Source of the DNA: Candidatus Woesearchaeota archaeon
Lineage (GTDB): Archaea; Nanobdellota; Nanobdellia; Pacearchaeales; GW2011-AR1
Length of the DNA stretch: 64,000 bases
Direction: 5' to 3'
Assembly (NCBI GenBank): GCA_964468545.1
Contig: CAYXTT010000001.1
Span: 1,894 to 65,893, forward strand
Of the stretch, positions 3,937-58,239 are shown one piece after another (position 1 is the first letter of the stretch; the number at the start of each line of letters is the position of its first letter). Made by a program: the position numbers and the translations under genes. Under the pieces are notes generated by a model. It did no database searches. It saw only the letters and a list, made by a program, of their open reading frames with translations, and had not been told where the DNA came from.

Positions 3937-4218
3937 ATGAGAGTAACAAAAATGGCAATTAAAAAAATAACAGAAAAAATCACAACCATAAAACTTCTGG
4001 AAGAAACAAAACTCCGAATCGAAAAACTCCGACAAAACAAAGGCGAATCCTACGACGACATTCTTAGAAAAATCCTCTACATCTTAAACACCGCGCGAGA
4101 CGAACCCGACAAAGCAAAACGAATTCTCGAAAAAATTTCCGAACTCCGACAACGAATGCTCGACGAGGAAAAACAACAGGAAGAAGATCTGAAAAAAGAA
4201 AACGGAAGAGAAGAGTAA
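3937..4218 (+). CDS. Small ribbon-helix-helix-like DNA-binding protein.
   Basis: 93 aa. TIKLLEETKLRIEKL...GESYDDILRKIL fits the strand-helix-helix pattern. It has a charged C-terminal tail. Confidence 0.35.
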   Translation: MRVTKMAIKKITEKITTIKLLEETKLRIEKLRQNKGESYDDILRKILYILNTARDEPDKAKRILEKISELRQRMLDEEKQQEEDLKKENGREE

Positions 4219-4485
4219 TGGACGAAGAACTTAATAGACGAAGAACTTAATGAAAAAATAACAGACAGAATAGATTCAGCAATAGCCAGAGCCCATCAAT
4301 TCTTACAAAGCTGCACCATCGAAGAATTAGTTAAAGAATCTATCAAATTAGGAGCAGCAAAAGAAAAATTAGAAACCATCAAAGAATACTTTGTGCCAAG
4401 ATTGTACGAAGAATTAAAAACAAAAATCAGCATCCTTGAAAAAAAATACCTCATAGAAGCACAATACCAAGATCGACAAAGATAA
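4218..4485 (+). pseudogene. Small hypothetical ORF disrupted by a 16-bp tandem duplication.
   Basis: ATG at 4218 overlaps the upstream stop (TAATG). The duplication GACGAAGAACTTAAT(A) at 4222-4252 shifts the frame; MDEELNRRRT* then terminates. Without one copy, a clean about 83-aa ORF reads through to the TAA at 4483-4485. Confidence 0.45.
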
Positions 4486-5310
4486 CTACAAACTCCCCCA
4501 CTCTCTCATCCCAACAACCGAATCTCCAACAGCGTCGGGACTTTCACATATCAAAACAACATCTTTATCTAACCCAGACAAAAATTCCAACACCTTCTTC
4601 CATTCAGACAAAGGCGTCACCAAATGTTTCTTCTCGCCCTTATCTCCAAACTCAATCCCTGAAAAATGCACGTGCCAATTCTTCAACTTGAAAACCTCTT
4701 CAATTTTCTCAAACTCATAATTTTTATAACGAGCCAAAACATGCGCAATATCAATACAAACCCCGCAACCCGTCTCGCGAACCAATCGCCCAACCTCGTC
4801 AATCGAACCAAAAACATTCACCTTCCCCATAACCTCCGGACACAATTCAACATCCCATTTATTTTCCTTCACAACTTCCATCATCTCAACCACCCCTTCC
4901 TTAATCTTCTGAAAATCCGCTTCCATCCATTCTGAATTCTGACACCTGACACCTGACACCTTATTCAAATTCTTTGAGTTTGAATAAAATCCCGGATGAA
5001 AAACAACCCGCTTCGCCCCGAGCCACGACGCAACCTCGCAACATTTCAAAATCCGAGCCCTCGACATCTCAACCTTCTTCTCTTCCTTCGAATTCAAATT
5101 AATCCAATATGGCGCATGCACCGACAAATAAATCCCCAACTTTTTCGCAACCCGACCAATTCTCAAAGCATCCTCTTTCTTTTTAATATAAATCCCATAA
5201 GTAAACAAAACCTCCGCCGCCCGAAAACCCAACTTATGATACATCTCCAAATTCGCAACCGCATCACCAACCGACCCAATCCCCGTCGGACCAAATCTTA
5301 TATTAGACAT
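4486..5310 (-). CDS. nfo: Endonuclease IV (AP endonuclease, xylose-isomerase-like TIM barrel).
   Basis: Motifs HAPYWINL, HPGFY and IDIAHV. 274 aa. It carries an in-frame repeat insertion, listed separately. Confidence 0.8.
   Translation of the reverse strand: MSNIRFGPTGIGSVGDAVANLEMYHKLGFRAAEVLFTYGIYIKKKEDALRIGRVAKKLGIYLSVHAPYWINLNSKEEKKVEMSRARILKCCEVASWLGAKRVVFHPGFYSNSKNLNKVSGVRCQNSEWMEADFQKIKEGVVEMMEVVKENKWDVELCPEVMGKVNVFGSIDEVGRLVRETGCGVCIDIAHVLARYKNYEFEKIEEVFKLKNWHVHFSGIEFGDKGEKKHLVTPLSEWKKVLEFLSGLDKDVVLICESPDAVGDSVVGMREWGSL
4939..4987 (+). repeat. (GACACCT)x3 tandem heptamer followed by a 9-bp-stem hairpin (TTATTCAAA-ttctttgag-TTTGAATAA). It is inserted in-frame inside nfo.
   Basis: Read directly from the sequence. 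On the coding strand it translates as ...NSKNLNKVSGVRCQNSEW... Confidence 0.8.
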
Positions 5311-17791: not shown

Positions 17792-18409
17792 TTATCTTGC
17801 TGCATCAGCCGCCTTTTCCGAATCATTCCTCTTCGAAATCGCATAACTCTCGCCAGAATTCGCCGCCGCCAGCATCAACTCCTTCGCCAACGCCTCGACA
17901 ATCGTCGCCTTTTTATTAAACGCCTTGTCATAAGCCCCATTTACAAAATATCTCAAAACTAAATTCAATCTCCGTCGCGGAGAAACATCAACCGCCTGCG
18001 GATACTTCGCCCCCCCATATTCAATCGATGTAACCTCGTCCCGTGGCGCCGCATTCTCAATCGCCTTCACAAAAACCTTCAACGGATTCTCCCCCGTGCT
18101 CTTCTCTATAATCTTAAACGCATCAATCACAATCATCGTGCACCTCGTCTGCTTCCCACTAATCCACCCCGTAATAATCCTGTGCTTCTTCCCTCGACTT
18201 CCCGGCACTTGCAACAAATTAATCAATCTCTCGACGACATTAACCTTCGCCCTCGTCGGGTCCCACTTAATCCTCCCATGCGATTTCAACAACAACTTCG
18301 GCGACAAATTCACAACTTTCTTCAATCCCGGATCCTCAACTCGAACCTCTGACGCATCAAACAATCCAAAAACTTTCATCTCTACCATCAAAAAACCGAC
18401 CTCCCACAC
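17792..18409 (-). CDS. rps7: Ribosomal protein S7.
   Basis: KVFGLFDASEVRVEDPGLKKV... The true start is probably the internal MKVFG (about 18379). Confidence 0.9.
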   Translation of the reverse strand: MWEVGFLMVEMKVFGLFDASEVRVEDPGLKKVVNLSPKLLLKSHGRIKWDPTRAKVNVVERLINLLQVPGSRGKKHRIITGWISGKQTRCTMIVIDAFKIIEKSTGENPLKVFVKAIENAAPRDEVTSIEYGGAKYPQAVDVSPRRRLNLVLRYFVNGAYDKAFNKKATIVEALAKELMLAAANSGESYAISKRNDSEKAADAAR

Positions 18410-18593
18410 ACCATAGAATTCATTTTATTAGACTGTCCATATAGACAAATTTCTCGCTGACCCTTCATTTTATCTTCCTCTCTAATAATTGTCCTATTAA
18501 ATGGAGCACCGACGATATACTCAACACTCACAAGCGTATCATACCTTCCATTAAAACCATCCTTATTATCTCTTAACCATCTCAACTCCCATA

Positions 18594-18730
18594 AAAAATC
18601 CGTGTTAGTCCGTGTTAGTCTATGTGCTATTTTTTCTCCAGTTACACAAGTCACACCAAGCAACCCAAGTCGTGCGACAAGCGACAAGCGACAAGCGACA
18701 AGCGCAATGAAATTTCTCTGAAATTTCATC
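18594..18730 (+). repeat. Composite repeat element A in the S12-S7 spacer. It has a CGTGTTAGTC decamer block, an AGTTACACAAG segment, (GCGACAA)x4 and the hairpin ATGAAATTTC-tct-GAAATTTCAT.
   Basis: Tandem repeats and the inverted repeat are read directly. It shares its architecture and partial sequence with element B at 23433-23565. Confidence 0.8.
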
Positions 18731-19148
18731 GTCTCCCCTTCTCAATCTTCCCCATCCACAATCTATCCAATGGCTGGTCATTCACTTTAATTACTTGAAA
18801 TCTAATCCCAGACAAATCCCCTTTCGTCCGTCCCTGCTTTCCACCAATCCTCTCAACTACAACCTCGTCGTGCTCATCGATAAATGTCTGCGCCAAGTTC
18901 CCAGGAATAAACGCCGTAACTTCTTTCCCGTTCTTAATCAACTGCACCTTGCAACATTTCCTCATAGCTGAGTTCGGCTGCTTCGCCTCTTTCTGAACTT
19001 TCTTTATAACAATCCCCTTCGCCTGCGACGCTCGCCCAATCGGGTCAAATTTCAAACTAATCCCAAGCCGTTTCTTTTTATGCGGCAACTTATTATCACG
19101 AAACTTTTTCCTATCCTTCTTCAACTTCCGCCCGCTCATTATTCCCAT
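18726..19148 (-). CDS. rps12: Ribosomal protein S12.
   Basis: GIVIKKVQKEAKQPNSAMRKCCKVQLIKNGKEVTAFIPG. Confidence 0.95.
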   Translation of the reverse strand: MGIMSGRKLKKDRKKFRDNKLPHKKKRLGISLKFDPIGRASQAKGIVIKKVQKEAKQPNSAMRKCCKVQLIKNGKEVTAFIPGNLAQTFIDEHDEVVVERIGGKQGRTKGDLSGIRFQVIKVNDQPLDRLWMGKIEKGRR

Positions 19149-19740: not shown

Positions 19741-19979
19741 CATTTCCTAACAGAAAAAACTTCACATTCAAAATCAAGATTTAATTCCTTGGCAACGTCT
19801 TCCTTCAACTTCAAAACATCAAATTCAATCTTCGCAGCCTCCAATTTCTCGACAATTTCATCTCGAGTATCTTTGCAAATAAAAACATTTTTCAACTTTT
19901 TCCCGCCCTTCAACGCCTGCCTCAACCCAAAAAAAACTTTCCCCCTTTCCATCGCTTCCGCCAAATCTTTTACACTCAT
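19740..19979 (-). CDS. rpl30e: Ribosomal protein L30e (L7Ae/L30e fold).
   Basis: GKVFFGLRQALKGGKKLKNVFIC. Conserved position downstream of rpoA. Its ATGA start overlaps the rpoA stop. Confidence 0.7.
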   Translation of the reverse strand: MSVKDLAEAMERGKVFFGLRQALKGGKKLKNVFICKDTRDEIVEKLEAAKIEFDVLKLKEDVAKELNLDFECEVFSVRK

Positions 19980-22900
19980 TTCTTTTTCTCCTTAACTTTA
20001 TTAGCCAAACTTCCTGTCACCTTAACCAACAACCCCGGCAATCCCGTCCCAACCGGAACCGGCTGATTCAAAATAATATTCTCAATCACCGACGCTAATT
20101 TATCTTTCTTCCCGGTTTTCGTCGCTTGAACAAATTGCTTGACTGGTGTTTCAAAAGATGCCCTCGCCAAAATCGAACTCTTGTCAGAAATAATTCCCAT
20201 TCTCGTAATCCCTTTCACTATCCCCGAACTAACCATCGTATCCGCAACCAACATCGCATGTTTACCATCAACCGCCAACCCCTGCGAACTAATTATTTTA
20301 TTAATTTCATTAATTATCAATTGTCGCGCCGCCTCAATCCCAAGAACACTCGCAACCTCATGAATATCATTACTCAAAACCTTATTGCCATCAACTCCCT
20401 TAAACGCCAGCACATCTTTAAGATTAGAACCCGCCGTCAAAATCACAAAATCTTTCCCCCTCTTGACAACCAAAACCTGAGAAATCTTTTTAACTCCAGT
20501 TAAAATAACCTCCTTAATTTTCTCTTTTGTTTTATAAATAGTTTTAAAATCTTCCTTCGTCATATCCAACACAAACCCATCAGACAATCTTTTCATACTA
20601 TAACCCTTTATCTTCAAAACCTCCACAACTTTTTCCAATCCAATATGCACCGACCTCAAAGCCTTCTCGTCAATATTAACTTTAATCTTCTTCGTCCCAA
20701 AATCAATACCAATGCCAGAAATAACCTCCTTCAACTTGACCTCTTTGATTTTCTCCGCAACAACCCTCGCATCCTTCTCATTATTGTGTTCTTTATCCAA
20801 CCAAATTTCCATCGACGGTGTTTTCGGCAATTTCCTCGCATCTAAAATTTCAATAATACGTGGCAATCCCTGCGTAACCTGCATCTCAGCAACACCAGCA
20901 GAATGGAAAACATTCAAAACCATTTGCGTCGATGCCTCGCCAAAACTCTGAGCAGTTACAACACCAATCGCTTCACCCGGAGCAACTTTCTTATTATTAT
21001 GCCTCTCTGAAATGTCAACTCCATCAACTCCATACACGAACTGAACAATATTATTAGAAGCATCCCTCACCGTCCCATCATAAGCCATAACTAAATCTTG
21101 CAACGCATTCGCCAACCTTCTATACAAATAACCCGACTTCGGCGTCCTCAACGCAACATCCATTAACCCATCTCTGCCAGTCATCGCACCAAAGAAAAAT
21201 TCATCAGGTCTAAACCCATCCATCAACGAACTATAAACAAACCCGCGCGCCCTCGGCGACAAATCATCCTTCCTGAAAAACGACAATGTTCTACCGGTAT
21301 ACCCAAAATCGATTCTCCTTCCATGCAAAACCTGTTGCCCAACCGAACACGCAATCTGTGTAATATTCAACATACTACCAGATGCCCCAGAACCAATCAT
21401 CTTACTCGCCAAATTATCCTTAGGAAAACCTTCCTTAACCGCGTCGCCGATCTCCGTTCTCGTTTCATTCAACACCTGCAAAATTTTTGTCTCTCTTGTT
21501 TCTTCCGCACTCTTTCCCGGCAACAAATCCAAACTTTTATTATAATAATTTTCTATAATCTCTTTCGTCTTCAACTCAGCAGATTCTATAATCTTCTCCG
21601 TTTTCTTCTTCACGGCGTCGGGAACATTCAAATCATCAGCCGAAAGCGTAAACCCCGTCCTCGACAAAAACACCGTCCCCAACATAAAAACCTGTCTCAA
21701 TAATTCCATAGTTTCATCTCGACCCAATTTTATATCCGCCGCCCTCAAAGCATCTCCCCGCCCAGTTTTAAAGCTCGTCGCATTAAACTTACCATTTTTA
21801 GAAGATATACCATGCGCAATCCCCACAACTTCCTTCGGCACAATCTTCTCAAAAATACTTATTCCCGAATTCATCTTATTTAAACCGCCAACCTTGATAC
21901 CCGATTCATACAATAACTGCGTCGCATCCTCTTTATTTAATTCCGACTCACTCAAAATAAAATTCCCAGAAACAGCATCCTTAACACACCCAATAAAATT
22001 CATATTATTTTTAGGAGAAAACAAATTAGCATTTACATTCAACAACAACTTCGCTTCAGCCCTCGCCTCCTCAGTTTGCGGCGCATGAATATTCATCTCG
22101 TCGCCATCAAAATCCGCGCCATAAGGACCACAAGTCGCCGGATGAATTCTAAAAGTTCTCCCGGGAATTATCTTGACAAAATGCGCCATCAACGAAGCCC
22201 GATGCAAAGAAGGATGCCTGTTAAACAAAACCACATCTCCGTCAACAAGATGCCTCTCAACAATATATCCCGTCTCCAGTTCTTCAACCAATTCCTCTCT
22301 CAAATCATCAGTAATCCTCTTCCTCTTCCCGTCAGACCGAATAATATAATTCGCGGCAGGATAACTCGTCTTAGCAACCAACGCCTTCATTCTCTTCATG
22401 TTCACACTCGTAACCCTCTCCGCAACCGTCAAAATTTTCGCAACTTCAATCGGTATACCAACCTCATTCAACTTCATATTAAGATCTGGCGAAATAACCG
22501 TCCTCGCAGAATAATTAACTCTTTTCCCTGCCAAGTTTTTCCTAATCCGACCTTCCTTCCCCTTAATCCTCTCGGTAATCGTTTTCAATGGCTGCCCACT
22601 CCTATGCCTCGCCGGCGGAATCTTCGCAATCGAATTATCAAAAAAAGTCGTAACATGATACTGCAACAAATCCCACAAGTCCTCGATAATAACTTCCGGC
22701 GCACCCGCATTCAAATTCTCCCACAACCTCTGATTCGACCTAATAATGTCCGACAACTTATGAGTCAAATCATCCTCTGACCTCTCTCCCGACTCCAAAG
22801 TAATCGACGGTCGCACAGTTACCGACGGCACCAACAACAAAGTCAAAATCGTACTCTCCGGTCTCAATGTCGCAGCATTAATCCCAAGAATTTTCAAATC

Positions 22901-23416
22901 CCCATCACTAACCTTAACCAATCTCTCTCTAATCTCCGACGGAAACAATCTCCTTCTCCCGCTCCTAAAAGTCGTCGGCTTCTCCAGCCTCACCCTTTCC
23001 TGAATAATCCCACAATGCGGACACCTCTTCCCGTCCTTCGCCTTCTTAATTCTCATTACTAACCCCTTCGACAAATCCTTCTCATCCTTAATCAAAACTT
23101 TCCCACACGCCTCACAAGTGCACCTCAAAACCAAATCAATAATTGGTAAATACTTAATATGAATCACCGGCCGCGCCAGCTCAATCATCCCAGGATGACC
23201 AAGACATTCTTTCAACCGCCCTCCGCAAGTCCGACACCTCACTCCCGGGTCAATCGCACCAAGTCGCAAATCCATCAAACCACCGTCGACAGGATATCCA
23301 TCAACATCATAAAGTTCCGGCGTCACAATCTTCGCAACCGATAATTTCTTAATCTGCTCCGGATTCAACAACTGAAACTCCATTCCCTTAACTTGCTTCT
23401 TCACCGGCCTATTCAT
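19976..23416 (-). CDS. rpoA: DNA-directed RNA polymerase subunit A, with the A' and A'' parts fused in one reading frame. The track start 23434 is a TTG; the first ATG gives MNRPVKKQVKGMEFQLL.
   Basis: The N-terminal Zn motif CRTCGG...C and the A' catalytic regions. The frame continues through GVDGVDISE...GEASTQMVLNVFHSAGV into A''-type C-terminal motifs (VDGKHAMLVADTM). Confidence 0.9.
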   Translation of the reverse strand: MNRPVKKQVKGMEFQLLNPEQIKKLSVAKIVTPELYDVDGYPVDGGLMDLRLGAIDPGVRCRTCGGRLKECLGHPGMIELARPVIHIKYLPIIDLVLRCTCEACGKVLIKDEKDLSKGLVMRIKKAKDGKRCPHCGIIQERVRLEKPTTFRSGRRRLFPSEIRERLVKVSDGDLKILGINAATLRPESTILTLLLVPSVTVRPSITLESGERSEDDLTHKLSDIIRSNQRLWENLNAGAPEVIIEDLWDLLQYHVTTFFDNSIAKIPPARHRSGQPLKTITERIKGKEGRIRKNLAGKRVNYSARTVISPDLNMKLNEVGIPIEVAKILTVAERVTSVNMKRMKALVAKTSYPAANYIIRSDGKRKRITDDLREELVEELETGYIVERHLVDGDVVLFNRHPSLHRASLMAHFVKIIPGRTFRIHPATCGPYGADFDGDEMNIHAPQTEEARAEAKLLLNVNANLFSPKNNMNFIGCVKDAVSGNFILSESELNKEDATQLLYESGIKVGGLNKMNSGISIFEKIVPKEVVGIAHGISSKNGKFNATSFKTGRGDALRAADIKLGRDETMELLRQVFMLGTVFLSRTGFTLSADDLNVPDAVKKKTEKIIESAELKTKEIIENYYNKSLDLLPGKSAEETRETKILQVLNETRTEIGDAVKEGFPKDNLASKMIGSGASGSMLNITQIACSVGQQVLHGRRIDFGYTGRTLSFFRKDDLSPRARGFVYSSLMDGFRPDEFFFGAMTGRDGLMDVALRTPKSGYLYRRLANALQDLVMAYDGTVRDASNNIVQFVYGVDGVDISERHNNKKVAPGEAIGVVTAQSFGEASTQMVLNVFHSAGVAEMQVTQGLPRIIEILDARKLPKTPSMEIWLDKEHNNEKDARVVAEKIKEVKLKEVISGIGIDFGTKKIKVNIDEKALRSVHIGLEKVVEVLKIKGYSMKRLSDGFVLDMTKEDFKTIYKTKEKIKEVILTGVKKISQVLVVKRGKDFVILTAGSNLKDVLAFKGVDGNKVLSNDIHEVASVLGIEAARQLIINEINKIISSQGLAVDGKHAMLVADTMVSSGIVKGITRMGIISDKSSILARASFETPVKQFVQATKTGKKDKLASVIENIILNQPVPVGTGLPGLLVKVTGSLANKVKEKKK

Positions 23417-23432
23417 CTTACCGCCCCCAAAC

Positions 23433-23565
23433 AAAATCCGTGTTCGTCCATGTTAGTCCGTGTACCATTATTTCCAAAACTATAAGTTACATCAAGTTGC
23501 CCAACTCCTCCGAATGCCGAATGCCGAATGCCGAATGCCGCGAATGAAATTTCCGATTTCATTCG
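23433..23565 (+). repeat. Composite repeat element B in the rpoB-rpoA spacer. It has the decamer block AAAATCCGTGTTCGTCCATGTTAGTCCGTGT, an AAGTTACATCAAGTTGCCC segment, (CCGAATG)x3.5 and the hairpin GAATGAAAT-ttccg-ATTTCATTC.
   Basis: Seen in the sequence. The 3' hairpin arm overlaps the last two rpoB codons. Confidence 0.8.
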
Positions 23566-26500
23566 TACTTGTTTTTGAGTTCGAATTTAGTTAACAAATG
23601 CAAACCCTGCAACTCTTCAATCAACAACTTGAACGCATACGAAACCTCGACGGGCTCAACCTGATTCGAATGACAAAGCGAACAAACTTTCTTGTTATGA
23701 ATTTGGTCATCGATAACAATAGCCCCGCACTTCGTGCAAATATTTATCACAACCTTATCAGAATCATATCTCTCTTTCAATAACAGCGACGCTCCGTGCC
23801 CGACCAATGCCTCTTGCTCCATTTCTCCAAGTCTCAAAGCTCCACCTCGTGCCCGACCTTCAATCGGCTGTCGCGTCAACAACGCAATCTTCCCCGACGC
23901 CCGCGAATGCATCTTGTCCGCGACCATATATTTCAACTTCAAATAAAACATATTACCAATAAAAATCTTCACCGGCATCCTCTGTCCCGTAATTCCATTA
24001 TACATAACCTCTTTCCCATTCTCTCTAAACCCAAGCTTCTTCAAATTATTTTCCAAACTATCAATCTTCTCTCCAGAAAAAGCCGAAGCATCAACAATTC
24101 TTCCCGACAAAGCCGCAACCTTCCCAGCCAAAACATCCATCAAATAACCGACAGTCATACGCGACGGTATACCATGCGGATTAAACATAATATCCGGACG
24201 TATACCACTAATAGTAAATGGAACATCACACTCCGGCGCAATCATTCCAAGTATACCCTTTTGCCCATGAGGCACCGAAAATTTATCACCAATCTCGGGA
24301 ATCCTCAACTCTCTCGTCCTCACATGAACAACCATATTCCCCTCCTGATCCTGCGTCACAAAAACAGCGTCGACAATTCCAGTTTCTTCCTGCCTTATCG
24401 CTGAAGAATTCTCTTTTTTCGTCTGAATAGAAATCTCACGCGCCTCGCTCAAAAATTTAGGAGGACTAACCTTCCCAATAACAACTTCTCCCTCGACCAT
24501 CTCGGCCTCAGGAAACACAATTCCATCATCTTCCAAAAATCTATAATTCTCTTCAAGTCTATAACCAGAAACATCTTTATTCGGAATAGTAATCTCATCC
24601 TTAAGCCCACCCGCATAATTTAACTCAACCGAAGTATACGGCCTAAACCTCGAGCTCCTGCCAAATCCCCTATCAACCGAACCTCCATTCAAAACAGTAG
24701 CGTCCTCCATATTGTAACCTTCATAAGGCATGACAGCCAAAACAACATTCTGCCCAACCGGATGCACATCCAAAGTATCATAAATAAAACTTCTAACCAA
24801 CGGCTTCTGCGGATAATGCAAAAGCGAAACATCTGTATCAATTCTCACCGGAAAATTCCCAGCATAAATTCCAAGCCCCTGTCTATAAGCCCTCGAACCC
24901 CCCTTGACCATTCGCGCCGGCGGGTCATGGTCGCCAAACGGAATCAACGAAACACTAACTCCAAAAATATCTATAGCATCAACTTCCAAATGCGTATGTT
25001 CCTTCGTTAAATCTTTCTCATCCAAACAAATATAACAATCGTCCTCTTCGGCCGCGTCCAAATATTCCAAAATTCCCTTTTCAAACAAACCCTCCCAAGT
25101 CAAAACCCCGCTCTTAACCAATTCTAAATGCTCATTCTTCAATCTCGAAACTCCATCCTCGACGACAATCAACGGCCGAATCACACGACCAATTTCAGAA
25201 CTAATAAAAACCGTATCTAAAAATCTATCAAACCTCACCGAAACCTCAAACGGCAATCTTCCCTCTCTTCTAAAATTCCTAACCTTCCCAACAAATCCAT
25301 CAACATCATCAACAGCCCCGATAAACCTCCCGTTATAAAAAACATCAACAGCCCCTTCCACATCTCTCATCCCAGAATCCTTCAATACCCTCAAAACATT
25401 CTCATACTCTATCGTCGTCCTCGTAGAAATCCTCGCCAACAAAGCCAAATTTTTTCTCAATCCAATCTCTGTTCCCTCCGGCGTCTCAATCGGACAAAAC
25501 CTGCCATAATGCGTCGGATGCACAGTCCTCGCCGCAAAATTTTCTTGTTCACCCGGCAAAGTCGAAGTAACTCTCTGTAACTGCGACATAACCGCGAACG
25601 AATTATTTTTATCCATATTCTGCGTCACCCCGCTCCTCTCACCAATCCACGACCCAGTCGCAATCGCCGATTCAACTCGATGAGTAAACAAAGTCGACTT
25701 CGCAATCGTCTTAATCGAATAAAACTTCCTCCTTTTCATCGTCTTCTGCAAAGTGTGCTGCACCTCCCTCAAAAGAATATTAATATTAACCCTAAATAAA
25801 TCAGACAACAAATCCCCAGACAACCTCACTCTCTTGTTTGCGTAATGGTCCTTATCTGTCATCGCCGCACTCGGATTTTCCCTCGCAATATAAAACTGCT
25901 TAATAAACTTACAAAGTGTCCTCGCCTTCTCCATCCTCGATGCCTTATCTAAACCAATATGTGGCAAAAAATACGAATCAATTCTCTGCTTAACTCTATC
26001 AAGCATTTCCTTATTCGTCCCCTGCAACGAACTCTTCTCCGCAATCCACATCAACGCATCATTAACACTTCCAATCCCCGCAAACTCATAAAGATTAACA
26101 ACCAATCCATCCGTCTGCTTCCCAATAAATTTCACAATATCAGCGTCGCTGATCAAACCCAACGCCTTCAATAAAACAATCGCAGGAATATCCCTAAATC
26201 TCGAAAACGAAACCTCCAAAATTCCATAAGGACTCTCAACCAAAGAAACCGGAATTTTATACGCCCCTCTCTGCGAAAATAATCTCAGCATCAACCTATT
26301 CCTTGTTTTCTGCCATTCAACAAAAGTTTGATTCGACGCCAAATCCTCCGCCATCACCATCACTCTCTCATTTCCATTAATCAAAAAATAACCTCCATGA
26401 TCTCTCGAATCAATATAATTCTTCACTAAATCCTCGTCGCTCATCCCACTGAGATTACAAACTCCACTCTTAACCATAATCGGAATTCTCCCCAACTGAA

Positions 26501-26813
26501 CATCCTCGGTCTCAACCTGCCCCCCATAATTAATCGTCATCTCCATCCAAATCGGCGCCGAATAAGTCAAGCTCCTAAGTCTAACCTCCGCCGGCATAAC
26601 CAACCTCGAAGAACCATCCGCCTCGACAATATTGGGCTTCCCAACACGAATCTTCCCCAACTTAATTTCAAAATCATCCGTAGACAAAGAATCAGACAAC
26701 TCCGTCACAATCTCTTGCATCCTATTCTCAATAAAATCATTAAACGATTTTATATTCGACTCAACCAAAGAATGATTCTTCAAAAATTCTTTAACTAAAA
26801 TATGCTCAGTCAT
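23559..26813 (-). CDS. rpoB: DNA-directed RNA polymerase subunit B (unsplit).
   Basis: 1084 aa. Conserved RNAP beta regions, and a C-terminal Zn motif CTKCG...CSLC. Confidence 0.95.
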   Translation of the reverse strand: MTEHILVKEFLKNHSLVESNIKSFNDFIENRMQEIVTELSDSLSTDDFEIKLGKIRVGKPNIVEADGSSRLVMPAEVRLRSLTYSAPIWMEMTINYGGQVETEDVQLGRIPIMVKSGVCNLSGMSDEDLVKNYIDSRDHGGYFLINGNERVMVMAEDLASNQTFVEWQKTRNRLMLRLFSQRGAYKIPVSLVESPYGILEVSFSRFRDIPAIVLLKALGLISDADIVKFIGKQTDGLVVNLYEFAGIGSVNDALMWIAEKSSLQGTNKEMLDRVKQRIDSYFLPHIGLDKASRMEKARTLCKFIKQFYIARENPSAAMTDKDHYANKRVRLSGDLLSDLFRVNINILLREVQHTLQKTMKRRKFYSIKTIAKSTLFTHRVESAIATGSWIGERSGVTQNMDKNNSFAVMSQLQRVTSTLPGEQENFAARTVHPTHYGRFCPIETPEGTEIGLRKNLALLARISTRTTIEYENVLRVLKDSGMRDVEGAVDVFYNGRFIGAVDDVDGFVGKVRNFRREGRLPFEVSVRFDRFLDTVFISSEIGRVIRPLIVVEDGVSRLKNEHLELVKSGVLTWEGLFEKGILEYLDAAEEDDCYICLDEKDLTKEHTHLEVDAIDIFGVSVSLIPFGDHDPPARMVKGGSRAYRQGLGIYAGNFPVRIDTDVSLLHYPQKPLVRSFIYDTLDVHPVGQNVVLAVMPYEGYNMEDATVLNGGSVDRGFGRSSRFRPYTSVELNYAGGLKDEITIPNKDVSGYRLEENYRFLEDDGIVFPEAEMVEGEVVIGKVSPPKFLSEAREISIQTKKENSSAIRQEETGIVDAVFVTQDQEGNMVVHVRTRELRIPEIGDKFSVPHGQKGILGMIAPECDVPFTISGIRPDIMFNPHGIPSRMTVGYLMDVLAGKVAALSGRIVDASAFSGEKIDSLENNLKKLGFRENGKEVMYNGITGQRMPVKIFIGNMFYLKLKYMVADKMHSRASGKIALLTRQPIEGRARGGALRLGEMEQEALVGHGASLLLKERYDSDKVVINICTKCGAIVIDDQIHNKKVCSLCHSNQVEPVEVSYAFKLLIEELQGLHLLTKFELKNKYE

Positions 26814-26832
26814 TTTTCACCTCTTTAAAAAA

Positions 26833-26892
26833 CGACCAGCGACCAGCGACCAGCGACCAGCGATATGAAAAAATCAAAGATCTTTTCATATT
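26833..26892 (+). repeat. Mini-element E in the rpoH-rpoB spacer. (CGACCAG)x4 is followed by the hairpin ATATGAAAA-(11 nt)-TTTTCATAT.
   Basis: Seen in the sequence. It lies between the rpoH stop and the rpoB Shine-Dalgarno GAGGTGA. Confidence 0.8.
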
Positions 26893-31786: not shown

Positions 31787-32578
31787 TCAAACCCTAACCC
31801 CAACTTCCTCAAAATAATCCGCTATACTCTTTCTCAACTCCTTCAAAAATTCCTCACTCACATCTTTCTCGTCGACAAAAGAAGAATCAACAAACTTACC
31901 CTTATTCTTAAACCCCTGCAAAAAAAACCTCCTCGGCTTTCCCCTACAAACCTCATTTATCCACCTCGCCATCTCAACGACACTCTCCTTTGAATGCAAC
32001 CGCCCAACAACCGTCGTTCTAAACTCATAACCCCTGCTAAAATCCGTGTTAGTCCGTGTTAGTCCGTGTGCTAAATTTAATTCCTTATCAAGTTGTCCAA
32101 AATCATAAATCATCTTCATCGACCTTTCCACCGACGACAAATCAACGCTAACGCCAACAATTTTGGAATAATCCTCACGACAACCCTTAACATCCATCGC
32201 AACATAATCCACCAATCCTTCGTCAATCAACTCTTTAAGCCGAGAAGGAAACGACCCATTCGTATCAATCTTCACCTTAAACCCCATCTCTTTTACCCGA
32301 CGAACAAAATCAAAATCCAAACTCATCAACGGCTCACCCCCACTAATACAAACCCCATCCAACTTTCCAACTCGACTCTTTAAAAAATTCAAAACCTCTT
32401 TTTCTGCGAATTGCGAATTGCTAATTGCTAATTGCGCATCAACGGAGTTGACGAGTTCCGGATTATGACAAAACCCACAACGAAAATTACACCCGCACAA
32501 AAAAACAACACAACAAATTTCCTCCGGATAATCAATCGTCGAAACCTTTTGCAACCCAGCAATTTTCATTCTCCACAT
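31787..32578 (-). CDS. nrdG: Anaerobic ribonucleotide reductase activating protein (radical SAM). It carries two in-frame repeat insertions.
   Basis: CGCNFRCGFCHNPE radical-SAM cluster motif. The heptamer repeat encodes AQLAISNSQFA and the decamer repeat encodes GLTRTNTDF. Confidence 0.8.
   Translation of the reverse strand: MWRMKIAGLQKVSTIDYPEEICCVVFLCGCNFRCGFCHNPELVNSVDAQLAISNSQFAEKEVLNFLKSRVGKLDGVCISGGEPLMSLDFDFVRRVKEMGFKVKIDTNGSFPSRLKELIDEGLVDYVAMDVKGCREDYSKIVGVSVDLSSVERSMKMIYDFGQLDKELNLAHGLTRTNTDFSRGYEFRTTVVGRLHSKESVVEMARWINEVCRGKPRRFFLQGFKNKGKFVDSSFVDEKDVSEEFLKELRKSIADYFEEVGVRV
32041..32072 (+). repeat. (TCCGTGTTAG)x3 decamer block (AATCCGTGTTAGTCCGTGTTAGTCCGTGTGCTA), in-frame inside nrdG.
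   Basis: It is identical in type to the heads of elements A, B and D. An AAGTTGTCC segment follows, as in element B. Confidence 0.8.
32406..32451 (+). repeat. (GCGAATT)x2(GCTAATT)x2 heptamer block plus a short hairpin TCAAC-gga-GTTGA, in-frame inside nrdG.
   Basis: Seen in the sequence. Confidence 0.75.
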
Positions 32579-34897: not shown

Positions 34898-35240
34898 ACC
34901 CGCTCCACTTAATCATAGTTCCCCCTCGCTGAGCATCAACAAAATTAAACCCATTCGGATATCTCTCCTTCAACTTGTCAATATTCCCCCGCAAACAATC
35001 CTCTAACTTCCACCCAAAAAAATTACAAATCATAGCCGCATACCACATCATGTCCCCAATATTTTCTTTAATCCCGTCCTTCACCGCTTCATTTTTATGC
35101 GCAAAGGTTTTCTTAATACAACTCGCGATATCACCTGCCTCACCTGCAATCCCGAGCCCCCATGTCGCAATCTCCAACTCTGGCTCATTAAATTTCTTCG
35201 ACGTTCTCTTACAAGCCTCCTGATATTCATTCAATTCCAT
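34848..35240 (-). CDS. MazG-like nucleoside triphosphate pyrophosphohydrolase domain protein.
   Basis: 130 aa, EACKRTS...GLGIAGEAGDIASCIKK (MazG/HisE-like helical NTP-PPase pattern). It sits between nrdR and nrdD. Confidence 0.55.
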   Translation of the reverse strand: MELNEYQEACKRTSKKFNEPELEIATWGLGIAGEAGDIASCIKKTFAHKNEAVKDGIKENIGDMMWYAAMICNFFGWKLEDCLRGNIDKLKERYPNGFNFVDAQRGGTMIKWSGFEEDKKYGEVEDGKEN

Positions 35241-35277
35241 TTTATTTTTCCCTATCCCAAACCGCCAAGTCCCGATA

Positions 35278-35305
35278 CACCGCCAACCCGAAGAAACTCA
35301 AACTC
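35278..35305 (-). terminator. Hairpin GAAACTCAA-actcat-TTGAGTTTC immediately downstream of the nrdR stop.
   Basis: A 9-bp inverted repeat. An adjacent 18-nt direct repeat (AGTCCCGATACACCGCC) is also found inside the nrdR 3' end. Confidence 0.4.
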
Positions 35306-35744
35306 ATTTGAGTTTCTTTATCTCCTCCTTAAAATCATCAATATCCCCAAAGTCCCGATACACCGCCGCAAACCGAATATACGCAACCTTGTCAATCTTC
35401 TTCAGCTTATTCATAACCATCTCGCCAATCTGCGAACTTTTGATATCCTTCCCCTTCGCAACCCGATAAACATTCGCCTCAATATCATCAACGACCCCAT
35501 CTATCTCCTCACTCGTAAACGGCCGCTTCTGCAAATTCTTGTCAACCCCAACAAACAACTTCTCCCGCAAAAACTTTTCCCGACGCCCATCCTTCTTAAT
35601 AACATTCAAATCCAACTCGACTCGCTCATACGTCGTAAACCGCTTCCCACATTTCAAACACTCCCTTCTCCGACGAGTCACAGAATCACAATCACGCTTA
35701 TCCGTCACCTTCGTCTCAACAGCAGTACAATATGGACACCTCAT
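35304..35744 (-). CDS. nrdR: NrdR transcriptional repressor (Zn ribbon plus ATP-cone).
   Basis: MRCPYCTAVETKVTDKR...CLKCGKRFTTYE and the ATP-cone VIKKDGRREKF. Confidence 0.85.
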   Translation of the reverse strand: MRCPYCTAVETKVTDKRDCDSVTRRRRECLKCGKRFTTYERVELDLNVIKKDGRREKFLREKLFVGVDKNLQKRPFTSEEIDGVVDDIEANVYRVAKGKDIKSSQIGEMVMNKLKKIDKVAYIRFAAVYRDFGDIDDFKEEIKKLK

Positions 35745-39881: not shown

Positions 39882-40697
39882 CTACAAACACTCAAAAATA
39901 TTACACGCACTACAAACACTCCCACTCGCCGGCTCCCCACACTTCTCACACTTCCCCAACTCTCTTTCATCAACACTCAAATTCAAATTCAAAAATTCTT
40001 CAACAATTTTCAACTTCTCAGCGTCGCTAATCACCTTCATCCAATCCCGAGTCTCAACCCGATAAGTCCCAAACGCACACGGACACTTATTATACAAAAT
40101 ATCAAACTTCTTCATCTTAGCAAACTTCCTAATCTCCGACTCCGGCACAAAAAACAACGGCTTAACTCGTTGCACAAATCCACTGACACCTGACACCTGA
40201 CACCTGACACCTGTTTTTGGCGCACTCCTCGCGCCCAAAAACAAATTGCCTTTCAAGAAATTCATCAAAACATTCTGACATTCATCGTCGAGATTATGCC
40301 CCGTCACCAACTTATCAGCCCCGAGCTTCCGAGCCCACCGATTCAAAACCCACCGCTTCACCGTCCCACAAACCGAACACCCAGTCAACCCTTTCTTCTT
40401 TTTCAAAACCGCCTTAATAAAACAAATTCCCTGCCCCAACTCCGCCTTCAAATCAACAATCGTCAACCGAACCCCAATCTCCCCACAAAATTTCTCCATA
40501 TTCTTATTATGAACCCTAGACCACTCGCCAAGTCCCAAGTCAATCATCAACCCAGAAACATCGTAACCCAACTTCTTCAAAATATACAACACCGACGTCG
40601 AATCCTTCCCACCCGACAACGCCACAACAACTTTGTCCGACTTTTCCAACAACTCATACTTCCCAATCGTCTCCACAACTTTCTTTTCAACATCCAT
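39882..40697 (-). CDS. PP-loop ATPase of the TtcA/TtuA/NcsA tRNA-thiolation family. It carries an in-frame repeat insertion.
   Basis: PP-loop SGGKDS, then CSVCG and a C-terminal CEKCG...CSAC. The insertion encodes LFLGARSAPKTGVRCQVSGVSG. Confidence 0.7.
   Translation of the reverse strand: MDVEKKVVETIGKYELLEKSDKVVVALSGGKDSTSVLYILKKLGYDVSGLMIDLGLGEWSRVHNKNMEKFCGEIGVRLTIVDLKAELGQGICFIKAVLKKKKGLTGCSVCGTVKRWVLNRWARKLGADKLVTGHNLDDECQNVLMNFLKGNLFLGARSAPKTGVRCQVSGVSGFVQRVKPLFFVPESEIRKFAKMKKFDILYNKCPCAFGTYRVETRDWMKVISDAEKLKIVEEFLNLNLSVDERELGKCEKCGEPASGSVCSACNIFECL
40183..40243 (+). repeat. (GACACCT)x4 tandem heptamer plus the imperfect hairpin TGTTTTTGGCGC-actcct-CGCGCCCAAAAACA, in-frame inside the PP-loop ATPase gene.
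   Basis: Seen in the sequence. It uses the same heptamer as the nfo insertion at 4939-4960. Confidence 0.8.
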
Positions 40698-52937: not shown

Positions 52938-53028
52938 ATACAAGATTTACAAATCAATAGTTTTTAAGATTAATTGCACCTGGGATTAGTATGATTGTAG
53001 AAAAAATTTCGCTTCAAAAAAAATCCGT

Positions 53029-53058
53029 GTTAGTCTGTGTTAGTCCGTGTGCTATTTC
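53029..53058 (+). repeat. Decamer element D (AAAATCCGTGTTAGTCTGTGTTAGTCCGTGTGCTATTT) in the tRNA-Cys/tRNA-Arg spacer.
   Basis: Same family as 18594, 23433 and 32041. A partial tRNA-Cys T-arm copy (TTGCACCTGGGAT) lies at 52971-52988. Confidence 0.8.
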
Positions 53059-53082
53059 TCTAAAAACAGATTACTAACTCAA

Positions 53083-53157
53083 CGCTCCCGACAGGATTTG
53101 AACCTGCGACTTTTAGCTTAGAAGGCTAACACTCTATCCAGGCTGAGTTACGGGAGC
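53083..53157 (-). tRNA. tRNA-Arg (anticodon TCT).
   Basis: The reverse complement has acceptor GCTCCCG/CGGGAGC, D-arm ACTC...GAGT, anticodon stem TTAGC/GCTAA with loop CTTCTAA, and T-loop TTCAAAT. Confidence 0.8.
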
Positions 53158-58148: not shown

Positions 58149-58239
58149 ACACTCCCACTTCTCAATTCCTCAATCACCGACAAACAAAACAATCGACGAA
58201 CAAAACAATCGACGAACTCAAAACATAAAATTTCTAATC

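Follow-up and report, generated by a model that had tools for sequence, protein, structure and literature searches.

Heptanucleotide tandem arrays are the commonest class of long simple sequence repeat (LSSR) in prokaryotes, with the unit TAACTGA placed just upstream of start codons in ribosomal protein (r-protein) operons (PMC4679880), and a preference for four units has been reported for the GGGNATC repeats of Xanthomonas and Nostoc (PMC4692102). Adjoining genes may also share an ATGA in which the stop of one overlaps the start of the next; in archaea such overlaps lead to strict coupling of termination to reinitiation (PMC6728339), an untranslated gap of approximately 20 nucleotides (nt) abolishes coupling, and gene overlaps are enriched among the subunits of heteromeric complexes (PMC10666635). 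A third group, the Rickettsia palindromic elements and MITEs (miniature inverted-repeat transposable elements), consists of short repeats dispersed between genes and, in frame, within essential genes (reviewed in PMC10969869). Here we describe an element that shares traits with each of these systems. It lies in a 64,000-nt stretch of DNA from a Candidatus Woesearchaeota archaeon (contig CAYXTT010000001.1; hereafter the window), where a composite of repeats fills the space between rpoB and rpoA. Their products are the two largest RNA polymerase subunits, and the genes are normally locked together. We suggest, with somewhat more conviction than doubt, that the element is a modular intercistronic cassette of approximately 150 nt, inserted at a junction where rpoB and rpoA abutted or overlapped through ATGA, and that it works as a translational relay between them.

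Both genes are on the minus strand, and exactly 142 nt (23417-23558) separate the rpoB stop (TGA, 23561-23559) from the rpoA start (ATG, 23416-23414), as a first-pass annotation of this sequence had stated. That annotation described the spacer as almost wholly a composite repeat, which indeed recurs elsewhere in the window, with a hairpin overlapping the rpoB stop; the hairpin (23565..23541) does span the TGA. All four of the parts that it listed are present, but the heptamer array holds 4.4 copies and not 3.5, and its statement that a hairpin arm encodes the end of rpoB is correct for the codon GAA and the stop TGA but not for the K and Y codons, which lie outside the stem. It missed that the spacer is a complete 49-codon open reading frame (ORF) with an ATGA overlap at each end: at 23562-23559 the ATG of this relay ORF (23562-23560) overlaps the rpoB TGA, and at 23416-23413 its own TGA (23415-23413) overlaps the rpoA ATG. 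The same region is found in five independently assembled contigs from ENA and JGI (99.8-99.98% identity, zero indels), a concordance that rules out an assembly artefact or planted sequence, and no variation in array length between strains (phase variation) was seen among the five. The components of the spacer are far beyond chance, the heptamer pattern having 3 matches against 0.01 expected and the 31-mer 3 against 0.00. The features of the junction are as follows.

23559..26813, minus strand: rpoB ORF, 1084 amino acids (aa), Rpb2 domains 1-7, ending AAG TAC GAA TGA
23559..23561, minus strand: rpoB stop codon TGA, after a C-terminus (KNKYE, stop) conserved in relatives
23413..23562, minus strand: 49-codon relay ORF (MKSEISFAAFGIRHSAFGGVGQLDVTYSFGNNGTRTNMDEHGFCLGAVR, stop), called as a gene in all five assemblies
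23541..23565, minus strand: hairpin CGAATGAAAT-cggaa-ATTTCATTCG (= CGAAUGAAAU-cggaa-AUUUCAUUCG), 10-bp stem, -9.8 kcal/mol
23510..23540, minus strand: heptamer array (GCATTCG)x4.4, 31 nt, 100% perfect
23464..23509, minus strand: 46-nt linker AGGAGTTGGGCAACTTGATGTAACTTATAGTTTTGGAAATAATGGT, including GGGCAACTTGATGTAACTT, homologous to the linker of the S12-S7 cassette
23433..23463, minus strand: decamer array (ACACGGACNA)x2.7 = ACACGGACTA-ACATGGACGA-ACACGGA, module ACACGGACTAACATGGACGAACACGGATTTT, followed by a U4 run
23421..23428, minus strand: G-rich Shine-Dalgarno (SD)-like run GGGGGCGG, 4 nt upstream of the rpoA ATG, putative in function
23414..23416, minus strand: rpoA start codon, whose N-terminus MNRPVKK aligns to relatives
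19976..23416, minus strand: rpoA, a single 1146-aa ORF with Rpb1 domains 1-5

In the mRNA sense, the 5′ arm of the hairpin contains the final sense codon of rpoB, its UGA and the relay-ORF AUG that overlaps this stop; GCG stands between the hairpin and the heptamer array, and GTTTGGGGGCGGTAAG links the decamer array and its TTTT to the rpoA ATG.

The heptamer part satisfies the usual description of an LSSR, head-to-tail units of 5-11 nt beyond chance, with 31 nt in 4.4 perfect copies. Like the cyanobacterial short tandemly repeated repetitive (STRR) sequences, the Beggiatoaceae TAACTGA repeats (PMC4679880) and the GGGNATC repeats (PMC4692102), the arrays described here are perfect head-to-tail 7-nt units in about four copies, found mostly between co-directional genes, in r-protein and polymerase operons upstream of starts and occasionally inside ORFs; they likewise have a sporadic, apparently horizontal distribution by a mechanism that is not known. 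Unlike TAACTGA or STRR1-3, each with one genome-wide unit, the unit here differs from site to site and between orthologous sites. Unlike those arrays, too, each of the eight perfect arrays found here directly follows a hairpin, there are no G-tracts of the quadruplex type, the arrays fall within relay ORFs that are predicted to be translated, and the host is a DPANN archaeon. The junction resembles termination-reinitiation pairs (PMC6728339; PMC10666635) in its 4-nt ATGA overlaps, in joining subunits of one complex and in a genome where -4 overlaps are common, but such pairs couple two real genes directly, whereas here two overlaps appear to be chained by way of a 49-codon filler built of repeats, with coupling that would follow from this arrangement. 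The 66-nt module in NrdG, described below, is a frame-preserving insertion in a protein gene of the kind known from Rickettsia palindromic elements, and in both cases short repeats are dispersed between genes and in frame in essential genes (here nrdG). Unlike Rickettsia palindromic elements and MITEs, the cassette is present in very few copies and is built of tandem 7-mers and 10-mers, and it has no element-wide palindrome, no terminal inverted repeats and no clear target-site duplication: the whole-spacer fold has a z-score of 0.34, the sole inverted repeat is the local hairpin at the stop, the ends of the element are not inverted copies, and stop/start overlaps account for the flanking ATGAA motifs just as well as a target-site duplication would. 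Since it lacks an element-wide palindrome and terminal inverted repeats and its copy number is low, the cassette fits no one family; it is a variant of several known kinds. We know of no earlier description of two overlaps chained through a repeat-built filler ORF.

To place the insertion, the operon was taken from eight close and distant relatives by way of their RpoB proteins, and a metagenome scan gave 80 further loci (loci are given here as L with a number). The closest RpoB matches are metagenome-assembled genomes labelled archaeon, Nanoarchaeota or Pacearchaeota, and the host is a Pacearchaeota-like DPANN archaeon. The first-pass annotation held that rpoB and rpoA normally abut, and about half of 84 related loci do have a distance of -8 to +4 nt between them; the remaining loci carry inserts of 27-505 nt, nearly all of them diverse orphan small ORFs without a Pfam match. 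Because about half of the related Pacearchaeota have the two genes abutting, the spacer is, by this comparison, a lineage-specific insertion. No homologous spacer was found in distant relatives, which have either no spacer or unrelated small ORFs. At L127 the two genes abut in the junction GAATAAAATGATT, which reads AAATACGAATAAAATGATTAGACCA. The 5′ arm of the hairpin, GAATGAAAT in the mRNA sense, is in essence the junction of the ancestor, GAATAAAAT(G), in which TAA has become TGA as a single change, and the 3′ arm is an added inverted copy; the comparison with L127 is suggestive of a local seeding of array units from ancestral sequence. The idea that the element "became part of" rpoB finds no support: as KNKYE and its stop are the same in relatives with or without the insert, with only the stop codon changed from TAA to TGA, RpoB is unaltered by it.

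In the mRNA the cassette runs from the hairpin (rpoB stop and AUG) through the heptamer array, linker, decamer array and U-run to the SD-like G-run, and we propose that a ribosome would pass through it in three steps: (i) on ending rpoB it would melt the hairpin and terminate at UGA; (ii) it would reinitiate at the overlapping AUG and translate 49 codons through the repeats; and (iii) it would terminate at the UGA that overlaps the rpoA AUG and reinitiate there. With the hairpin holding both the stop and the AUG, the start of the relay would be exposed only by a ribosome that completes the upstream gene. An untranslated insert of 142 nt should break coupling, since a gap of only approximately 20 nt does so (PMC10666635); a filler ORF with ATGA at both ends would restore it in two hops. 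The relay would in this way preserve the coupling of rpoB to rpoA and keep the operon RNA covered by ribosomes, with no naked RNA in an essential operon. Translation-dependent polarity is established in archaeal operons. The arrays themselves would be slippage-prone repeats whose units contraction and expansion keep alike, the main constraint on them being to remain free of stops and in frame, and the relay peptide is probably meaningless.

The evidence that the frame matters comes from several junctions. In the window the relay frame has no stops and the other two have 3 and 4 (probability of an open frame in shuffled sequence, P = 0.034); for the 52-codon relay ORF of L136 P is 0.015, and for the S12-S7 cassettes of L006 and L007 it is 0.049 and 0.053. 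All five spacers between rpoH and rpoB that consist of a hairpin plus array (window, L006, L007, L126 and L212) hold an ORF of 24-30 codons with its TGA 8 nt into rpoB, and the same ORF architecture is found at the rpoH-rpoB, S12-S7 and nrdR-mazG junctions. ORF lengths differ between species by multiples of 3 only (150 vs 159 nt; at rpoH-rpoB 84, 84, 75 and 78 nt). Tightly coupled ORFs tile 14 of 17 spacers at rpoH-rpoB and, at rpoB-rpoA, at least 21 of 35. The decamer is the most telling part here, as the canonical unit ACACGGACTAACACGGACTAACACGGA (CTA) is closed in two of its three frames. Wherever a CTA-CTA copy stands in a translated context, it is read in the open frame, as HGLTRTNTD; where the other frame is in use (window rpoB-rpoA, L006 rpoB-ORF, L047, L126 nrdG and L136), the copy has G or A exactly where an in-frame TAA would fall, and in the window the second unit, ACATGGACGA, supplies GAA where the canonical unit gives TAA in the relay frame. 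The decamer of a tRNA spacer, the sole copy outside a reading frame, is also CTA-CTA and is uninformative either way. Between the rpoB-rpoA and S12 cassettes two 2-nt indels shift and then restore the frame within the decamer part, and this compensation points to selection for openness rather than for a peptide. The frame has been kept open despite differing arrays, a shift in the decamer frame and a TAA-to-GAA change, and we therefore favor selection for an open frame, not for its product.

Much of this can be set against another account, in which the cassette is a selfish or neutral repeat (simple-sequence, MITE-like or resembling a Rickettsia palindromic element) in a tolerant junction, the relay ORF is functionless and rpoA uses its own SD; the freedom from stops would then result from the purging of stop-bearing insertions or from base composition. 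We consider this account unlikely, though it deserves to be taken seriously. It accommodates the presence of the same modules in a non-coding tRNA spacer and, in frame, in genes such as nrdG, arrays with no stop triplets in any frame, an SD-like run ahead of rpoA and a small family confined to one clade. It sits poorly with an openness that is specific to one frame of three, with a TAA-to-GAA change placed precisely where the TAA would be in frame, with the ATGA overlaps at either end of several independent spacers and with length differences that are always multiples of 3; were variants with stops purged, this alone would mean that it matters whether the spacer is translated.

Several points nonetheless weigh against the relay. 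The SD-like G-run of rpoA makes independent initiation possible, and the relay would then be dispensable. A and C are scarce on the sense strand, and with arrays that hold no stop triplet part of the openness comes free. The compared species are related, so that the per-spacer probabilities given above are not independent, and a strict walk from ATG failed in 14 of 35 rpoB-rpoA spacers, some of which use earlier or non-ATG starts. The model assigns no role to the decamer sequence, though this is conserved across phyla. Finally, translation of the ORF and reinitiation at its ends are things we infer from sequence alone.

Hairpins of this kind have a familiar counterpart. In classical bacterial and phage operons a start codon masked in a hairpin is opened by the ribosome that translates the upstream gene. 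The cassette is like these coupled cistrons in that the start of the downstream frame is sequestered; it differs from them in that the hairpin holds the stop together with the overlapping start and is AT-rich, and its masking role is a presumptive one. All four hairpins of the window cover a stop/start and are significant against shuffles, with energies of -9.8 to -12.5 kcal/mol that are matched by 0-1 of 500 shuffles (1 of 500 for the hairpin at the rpoB stop). Stop-covering hairpins with different sequences are found in L136, L161, L147 and L007, and the structure is kept where the sequence changes: L006 has ATAAAATGT/ACATTTTAT and L007 has ATAAAATGC/GCATTTTAT, a T-A pair being swapped for C-G. 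A structured RNA was rejected, the spacer and the S12 cassette (z = -0.22) folding no better than shuffles, and in the centroid structure of the spacer the 10-bp hairpin alone survives. In Rfam 15, including C/D-box small RNAs, only tRNAs reach the gathering threshold and no match overlaps the spacer at E up to 5. A scan of the spacer for sigma-70 promoters and terminators, which does not cover archaeal promoters, gave chance-level results, and by eye no TTTAAA-type box lies 25-30 nt upstream of rpoA, though such boxes are visible at other genes of the window. An intrinsic terminator was also rejected: the heptamer array comes directly after a stem rich in A and T, the sole terminator-scan match is antisense, and the U4 after the decamers is short. 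That the inserts stay open in frame makes a spliced bulge-helix-bulge intron unlikely.

The cassette belongs to a small family. By alignment, the rpoB-rpoA copy is a paralogue of the S12-S7 cassette: the two align end to end, including the GTTTGGGGG..TAAGATGA tail, with 58-64% identity to S12 cassettes over the full length, and a leave-out hidden Markov model built from the S12-S7, nrdG and tRNA-spacer copies only finds the rpoB-rpoA copy (23504..23425) at E 7.6e-14. An orthologous cassette stands at rpoB-rpoA in one related lineage (L136, L212 and L213; 72% identity with the L136 cassette when aligned over the full length), with GTGTT(T)CG units, four decamers and then a 72-aa ORF; L147 shares with L136 the GTGTT(T)CG units at the position of the heptamer array, and L147 and L161 retain parts of the cassette. 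At S12-S7, orthologous cassettes are found in L006 and L007, with arrays that differ from that of the window. The other members in the window are listed here.

18588..18731, minus strand: S12 cassette, paralogous, with hairpin, heptamer array, linker and decamer array
26806..26889, minus strand: rpoH-rpoB spacer, with hairpin 26889..26865 over the rpoH stop and (CTGGTCG)x4.4 at 26863..26833
32031..32102, minus strand: nrdG module (linker plus decamer), 66 nt in frame, reading QLDKELNLAHGLTRTNTDFSRG
53013..53088, minus strand: tRNA-spacer module (linker plus decamer), non-coding, from tRNA-Arg to tRNA-Cys, with a U8 end
35291..35318, minus strand: nrdR hairpin, 12 bp, with the nrdR stop in its loop, then a 21-codon relay ORF to the next gene

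In the S12 cassette the hairpin (18729..18707) covers the S12 stop, (CTTGTCG)x4.4 follows at 18704..18674, and the decamer array (18625..18599) is followed by U6. The rpoH-rpoB spacer has the hairpin and array alone (26889..26833) and a 27-codon relay ORF that ends 8 nt into rpoB; the relay ORF after nrdR (MSLSFFGLAVYRDLAVWDREK, stop; with its hairpin at 35240-35318, minus strand) ends 1 nt before a MazG-like gene and marks a fourth such junction. The 66-nt NrdG module sits between FG and YEFRTT and is absent in L128, L140, L153 and L176. There are four clear linker-plus-decamer modules in the 64 kb, and a decayed one precedes the nusA-like gene. Hairpin-plus-heptamer units also occur in frame in genes for a PP-loop ATPase, a TIM-barrel protein and NrdG (40183-40213, 4939-4961 and 32405-32436). 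Perfect period-7 arrays number eight in approximately 126 kb of the clade, each directly after a hairpin, and none was found in approximately 965 kb of more distant Pacearchaeota.

The heptamer arrays have diverged in a telling manner. Orthologous sites retain the hairpin and the length of the array, not its unit, in genomes whose coding DNA is approximately 88% identical, and within the window the units are specific to their sites (GCATTCG, CTTGTCG, CTGGTCG, CAGGTGT and CAATTAG). The following can be compared directly.

rpoH-rpoB unit in register, window: TCGCTGG
rpoH-rpoB unit in register, L212: TCGGTCG / TCGGTTG
rpoH-rpoB unit in register, L126: TCGCCCG
rpoH-rpoB unit in register, L007: GGTGTCA
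rpoH-rpoB unit in register, L006: TTTCACT
S12-S7 array slot, window: (CTTGTCG)x4.4
S12-S7 array slot, L007: approximately (GGTATCG)x4.5
S12-S7 array slot, L006: four mini-hairpins with TTCG loops

Perfection inside each genome, coupled with divergence from one genome to the next, suggests repeated slippage, with contraction and re-expansion. One unit, CAGGTGT, is common to two genes of the window and the L007 rpoH-rpoB spacer, and AGGTTTC of L007 is also found in an unrelated bacterial locus (L053). Two further tandem arrays of the window have 16-nt units, CGACGAACAAAACAAT x2.5 (58178-58217) and TAATAGACGAAGAACT x2.2 (4216-4251); one falls in an intergenic leader, the other where there is no clear ORF.

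The gene order around the cassette (rpoH, rpoB, rpoA, a 79-aa ORF, a NusA-like KH protein, S12, S7 and elongation factor EF-2) is classical for archaea. The A′/A″ split of rpoA is usual in archaea; the rpoA of the window is unsplit, as it is in relatives (1125-1149 aa). Strand asymmetry is extreme throughout 1-64000, with a GC skew of approximately -0.45 and nearly all genes on the minus strand. At rpoH-rpoB, L128, L131, L149, L166 and L173 have an insert of approximately 58 nt, a duplicate of the 5′ end of rpoB that has since diverged, and the insert is doubled in L147 and L150. It gives a conserved 21-codon ORF, MAEVTLKIFH..ICSLEVKNG (stop), with its TGA 8 nt into rpoB, and in the window clade the interior of this duplicate has been overwritten by a hairpin and heptamer array (26814-26885). 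Between S12 and S7 lie orphan small protein genes (window 18388-18729, minus strand; L006 18910-19119; L129 14837-15423). Those of the window and L006 have a conserved domain of approximately 60 aa, ...RYD.LV.VE....IIREEDK..GQREI.L.G.S.K.NS..CG...F (stop), fused in the window in frame to a cassette-encoded N-terminus, and L129 has two different orphan ORFs of 108 and 86 aa. An Avd-like gene (PF22296, bAvd) stands between the nusA-like gene and S12 in L126 (14574-14888); bAvd is an accessory protein of diversity-generating retroelements.

The rpoB-rpoA junction is itself a hot spot for orphan small ORFs of 42-126 aa (L006, L007, L126 and L131-L210), which are tightly coupled to both neighbors; several of them have the four-cysteine motif W[GD]DVC..A.DGC...F.D.C...Y.SC. 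Ten small ORFs from the rpoB-rpoA and S12-S7 junctions gave no Pfam match. One might imagine from these that the 49-aa product is a genuine small protein, such as an RNA polymerase accessory peptide that has replaced the orphan ORFs of relatives, given that many of those ORFs look real, that gene callers report the 49-aa ORF and that L136 has a similar product of 52 aa. Yet DNA repeats of 7 and 10 nt make up the sequence, the frame in which the decamer is read changes from one paralogous copy to another (TRTNTDF vs TRTNMDEHGF), and none of the junction ORFs searched has a Pfam match. A profile search with the relay peptides found three proteins only (P0122 and two relatives), all of this clade. 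We regard a functional peptide as highly improbable.

The decamer is a different matter. Its arrays occupy 23433-23463, 18599-18625, 32043-32069 and 53024-53050 in the window, and the array ACACGGAC[GT]A, taken as the exact 25-mer ACGGAC[GT]AACACGGAC[GT]AACACGGA, occurs in at least 118 species-representative genomes (L008-L125), against a chance expectation, by arithmetic estimate, of approximately 0.004 in 596 Gb. The carriers listed include Acidobacteriota, Planctomycetota, Hydrogenedentota, Chloroflexota, Lentisphaerota, Armatimonadota, Nitrospirota, Streptomyces and Akkermansia among the bacteria, and Bathyarchaeia and Pacearchaeota among the archaea. Among the matches listed, the 25-mer is usually intercistronic, a few nt upstream of an SD and ATG, and is often paired with its own reverse complement; occasionally it lies in frame inside a large gene. 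A phage-borne origin was rejected, with 1 match only in 2.9 million viral contigs. Searches of the literature by sequence and by encoded peptide did not find the decamer, and Rfam has no family that matches it.

Two explanations would give the decamer a function. In the first, an extension of the relay, the cassette is a portable intercistronic relay that copies itself between operon junctions with its masked start, filler ORF, SD and stop/start overlap, and ACACGGAC[GT]A is a cross-domain cis-element recognised by a conserved component of translation or RNA handling; we offer this as an improbable extrapolation. In the second, the arrays, with or without the hairpin, would be docking sites for an RNA-binding protein or a place where the small ribosomal subunit stands by, and they would tune expression of rpoA and S7, the processing of mRNA or a partial termination at the U-run. 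In favor of this, folding predicts single-stranded arrays beside one stable hairpin, every copy has the order array, U-run, SD-like run (GGAGG-like at the other cassette copies) and ATG, and the verbatim decamer of distant genomes lies mostly just upstream of an SD and ATG; heptamer repeats of r-protein operons have been proposed as sites of translational regulators in Beggiatoaceae (PMC4679880), and the bacterial unit ACACGGACGA fits the Rsm/CsrA consensus (PMC6849547). The heptamer units, however, are wholly different between orthologous sites, which argues against a sequence-specific binder for them, and the spacer has neither structure beyond the hairpin nor an Rfam match. As for a CsrA sponge, the resemblance to the consensus (A/U)CANGGANG(U/A) is real, but the window unit ACACGGACTA misses one position, and the invariant core of the decamer, CACGGAC, does not consist of the positions that the CsrA consensus sets. 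No CsrA protein was found in 2 Mb of sequence, a search that did not extend to whole genomes. Archaea are not, to our knowledge, known to have CsrA, none would be expected in this host, and a sponge seems unlikely. This reading of the arrays as a regulatory RNA seems to us quite improbable.

It seems that an archaeon with a minimal genome can tolerate junk-like repeats in the junction between rpoB and rpoA, and that it would do so by keeping them translated. The heptamer arrays illustrate cleanly how repeats evolve in concert while a reading frame constrains them, and the decamer array, verbatim across bacterial phyla and archaea, is now open to direct survey; a conserved recognising component, if one exists, would explain why the same 25-mer lies upstream of start codons in so many distant genomes. 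If the relay operates as we propose, it would put to a natural test the rule by which overlaps are required for coupling (PMC10666635), and it would offer a way to recognise filler ORFs among those that gene callers report as hypothetical proteins.

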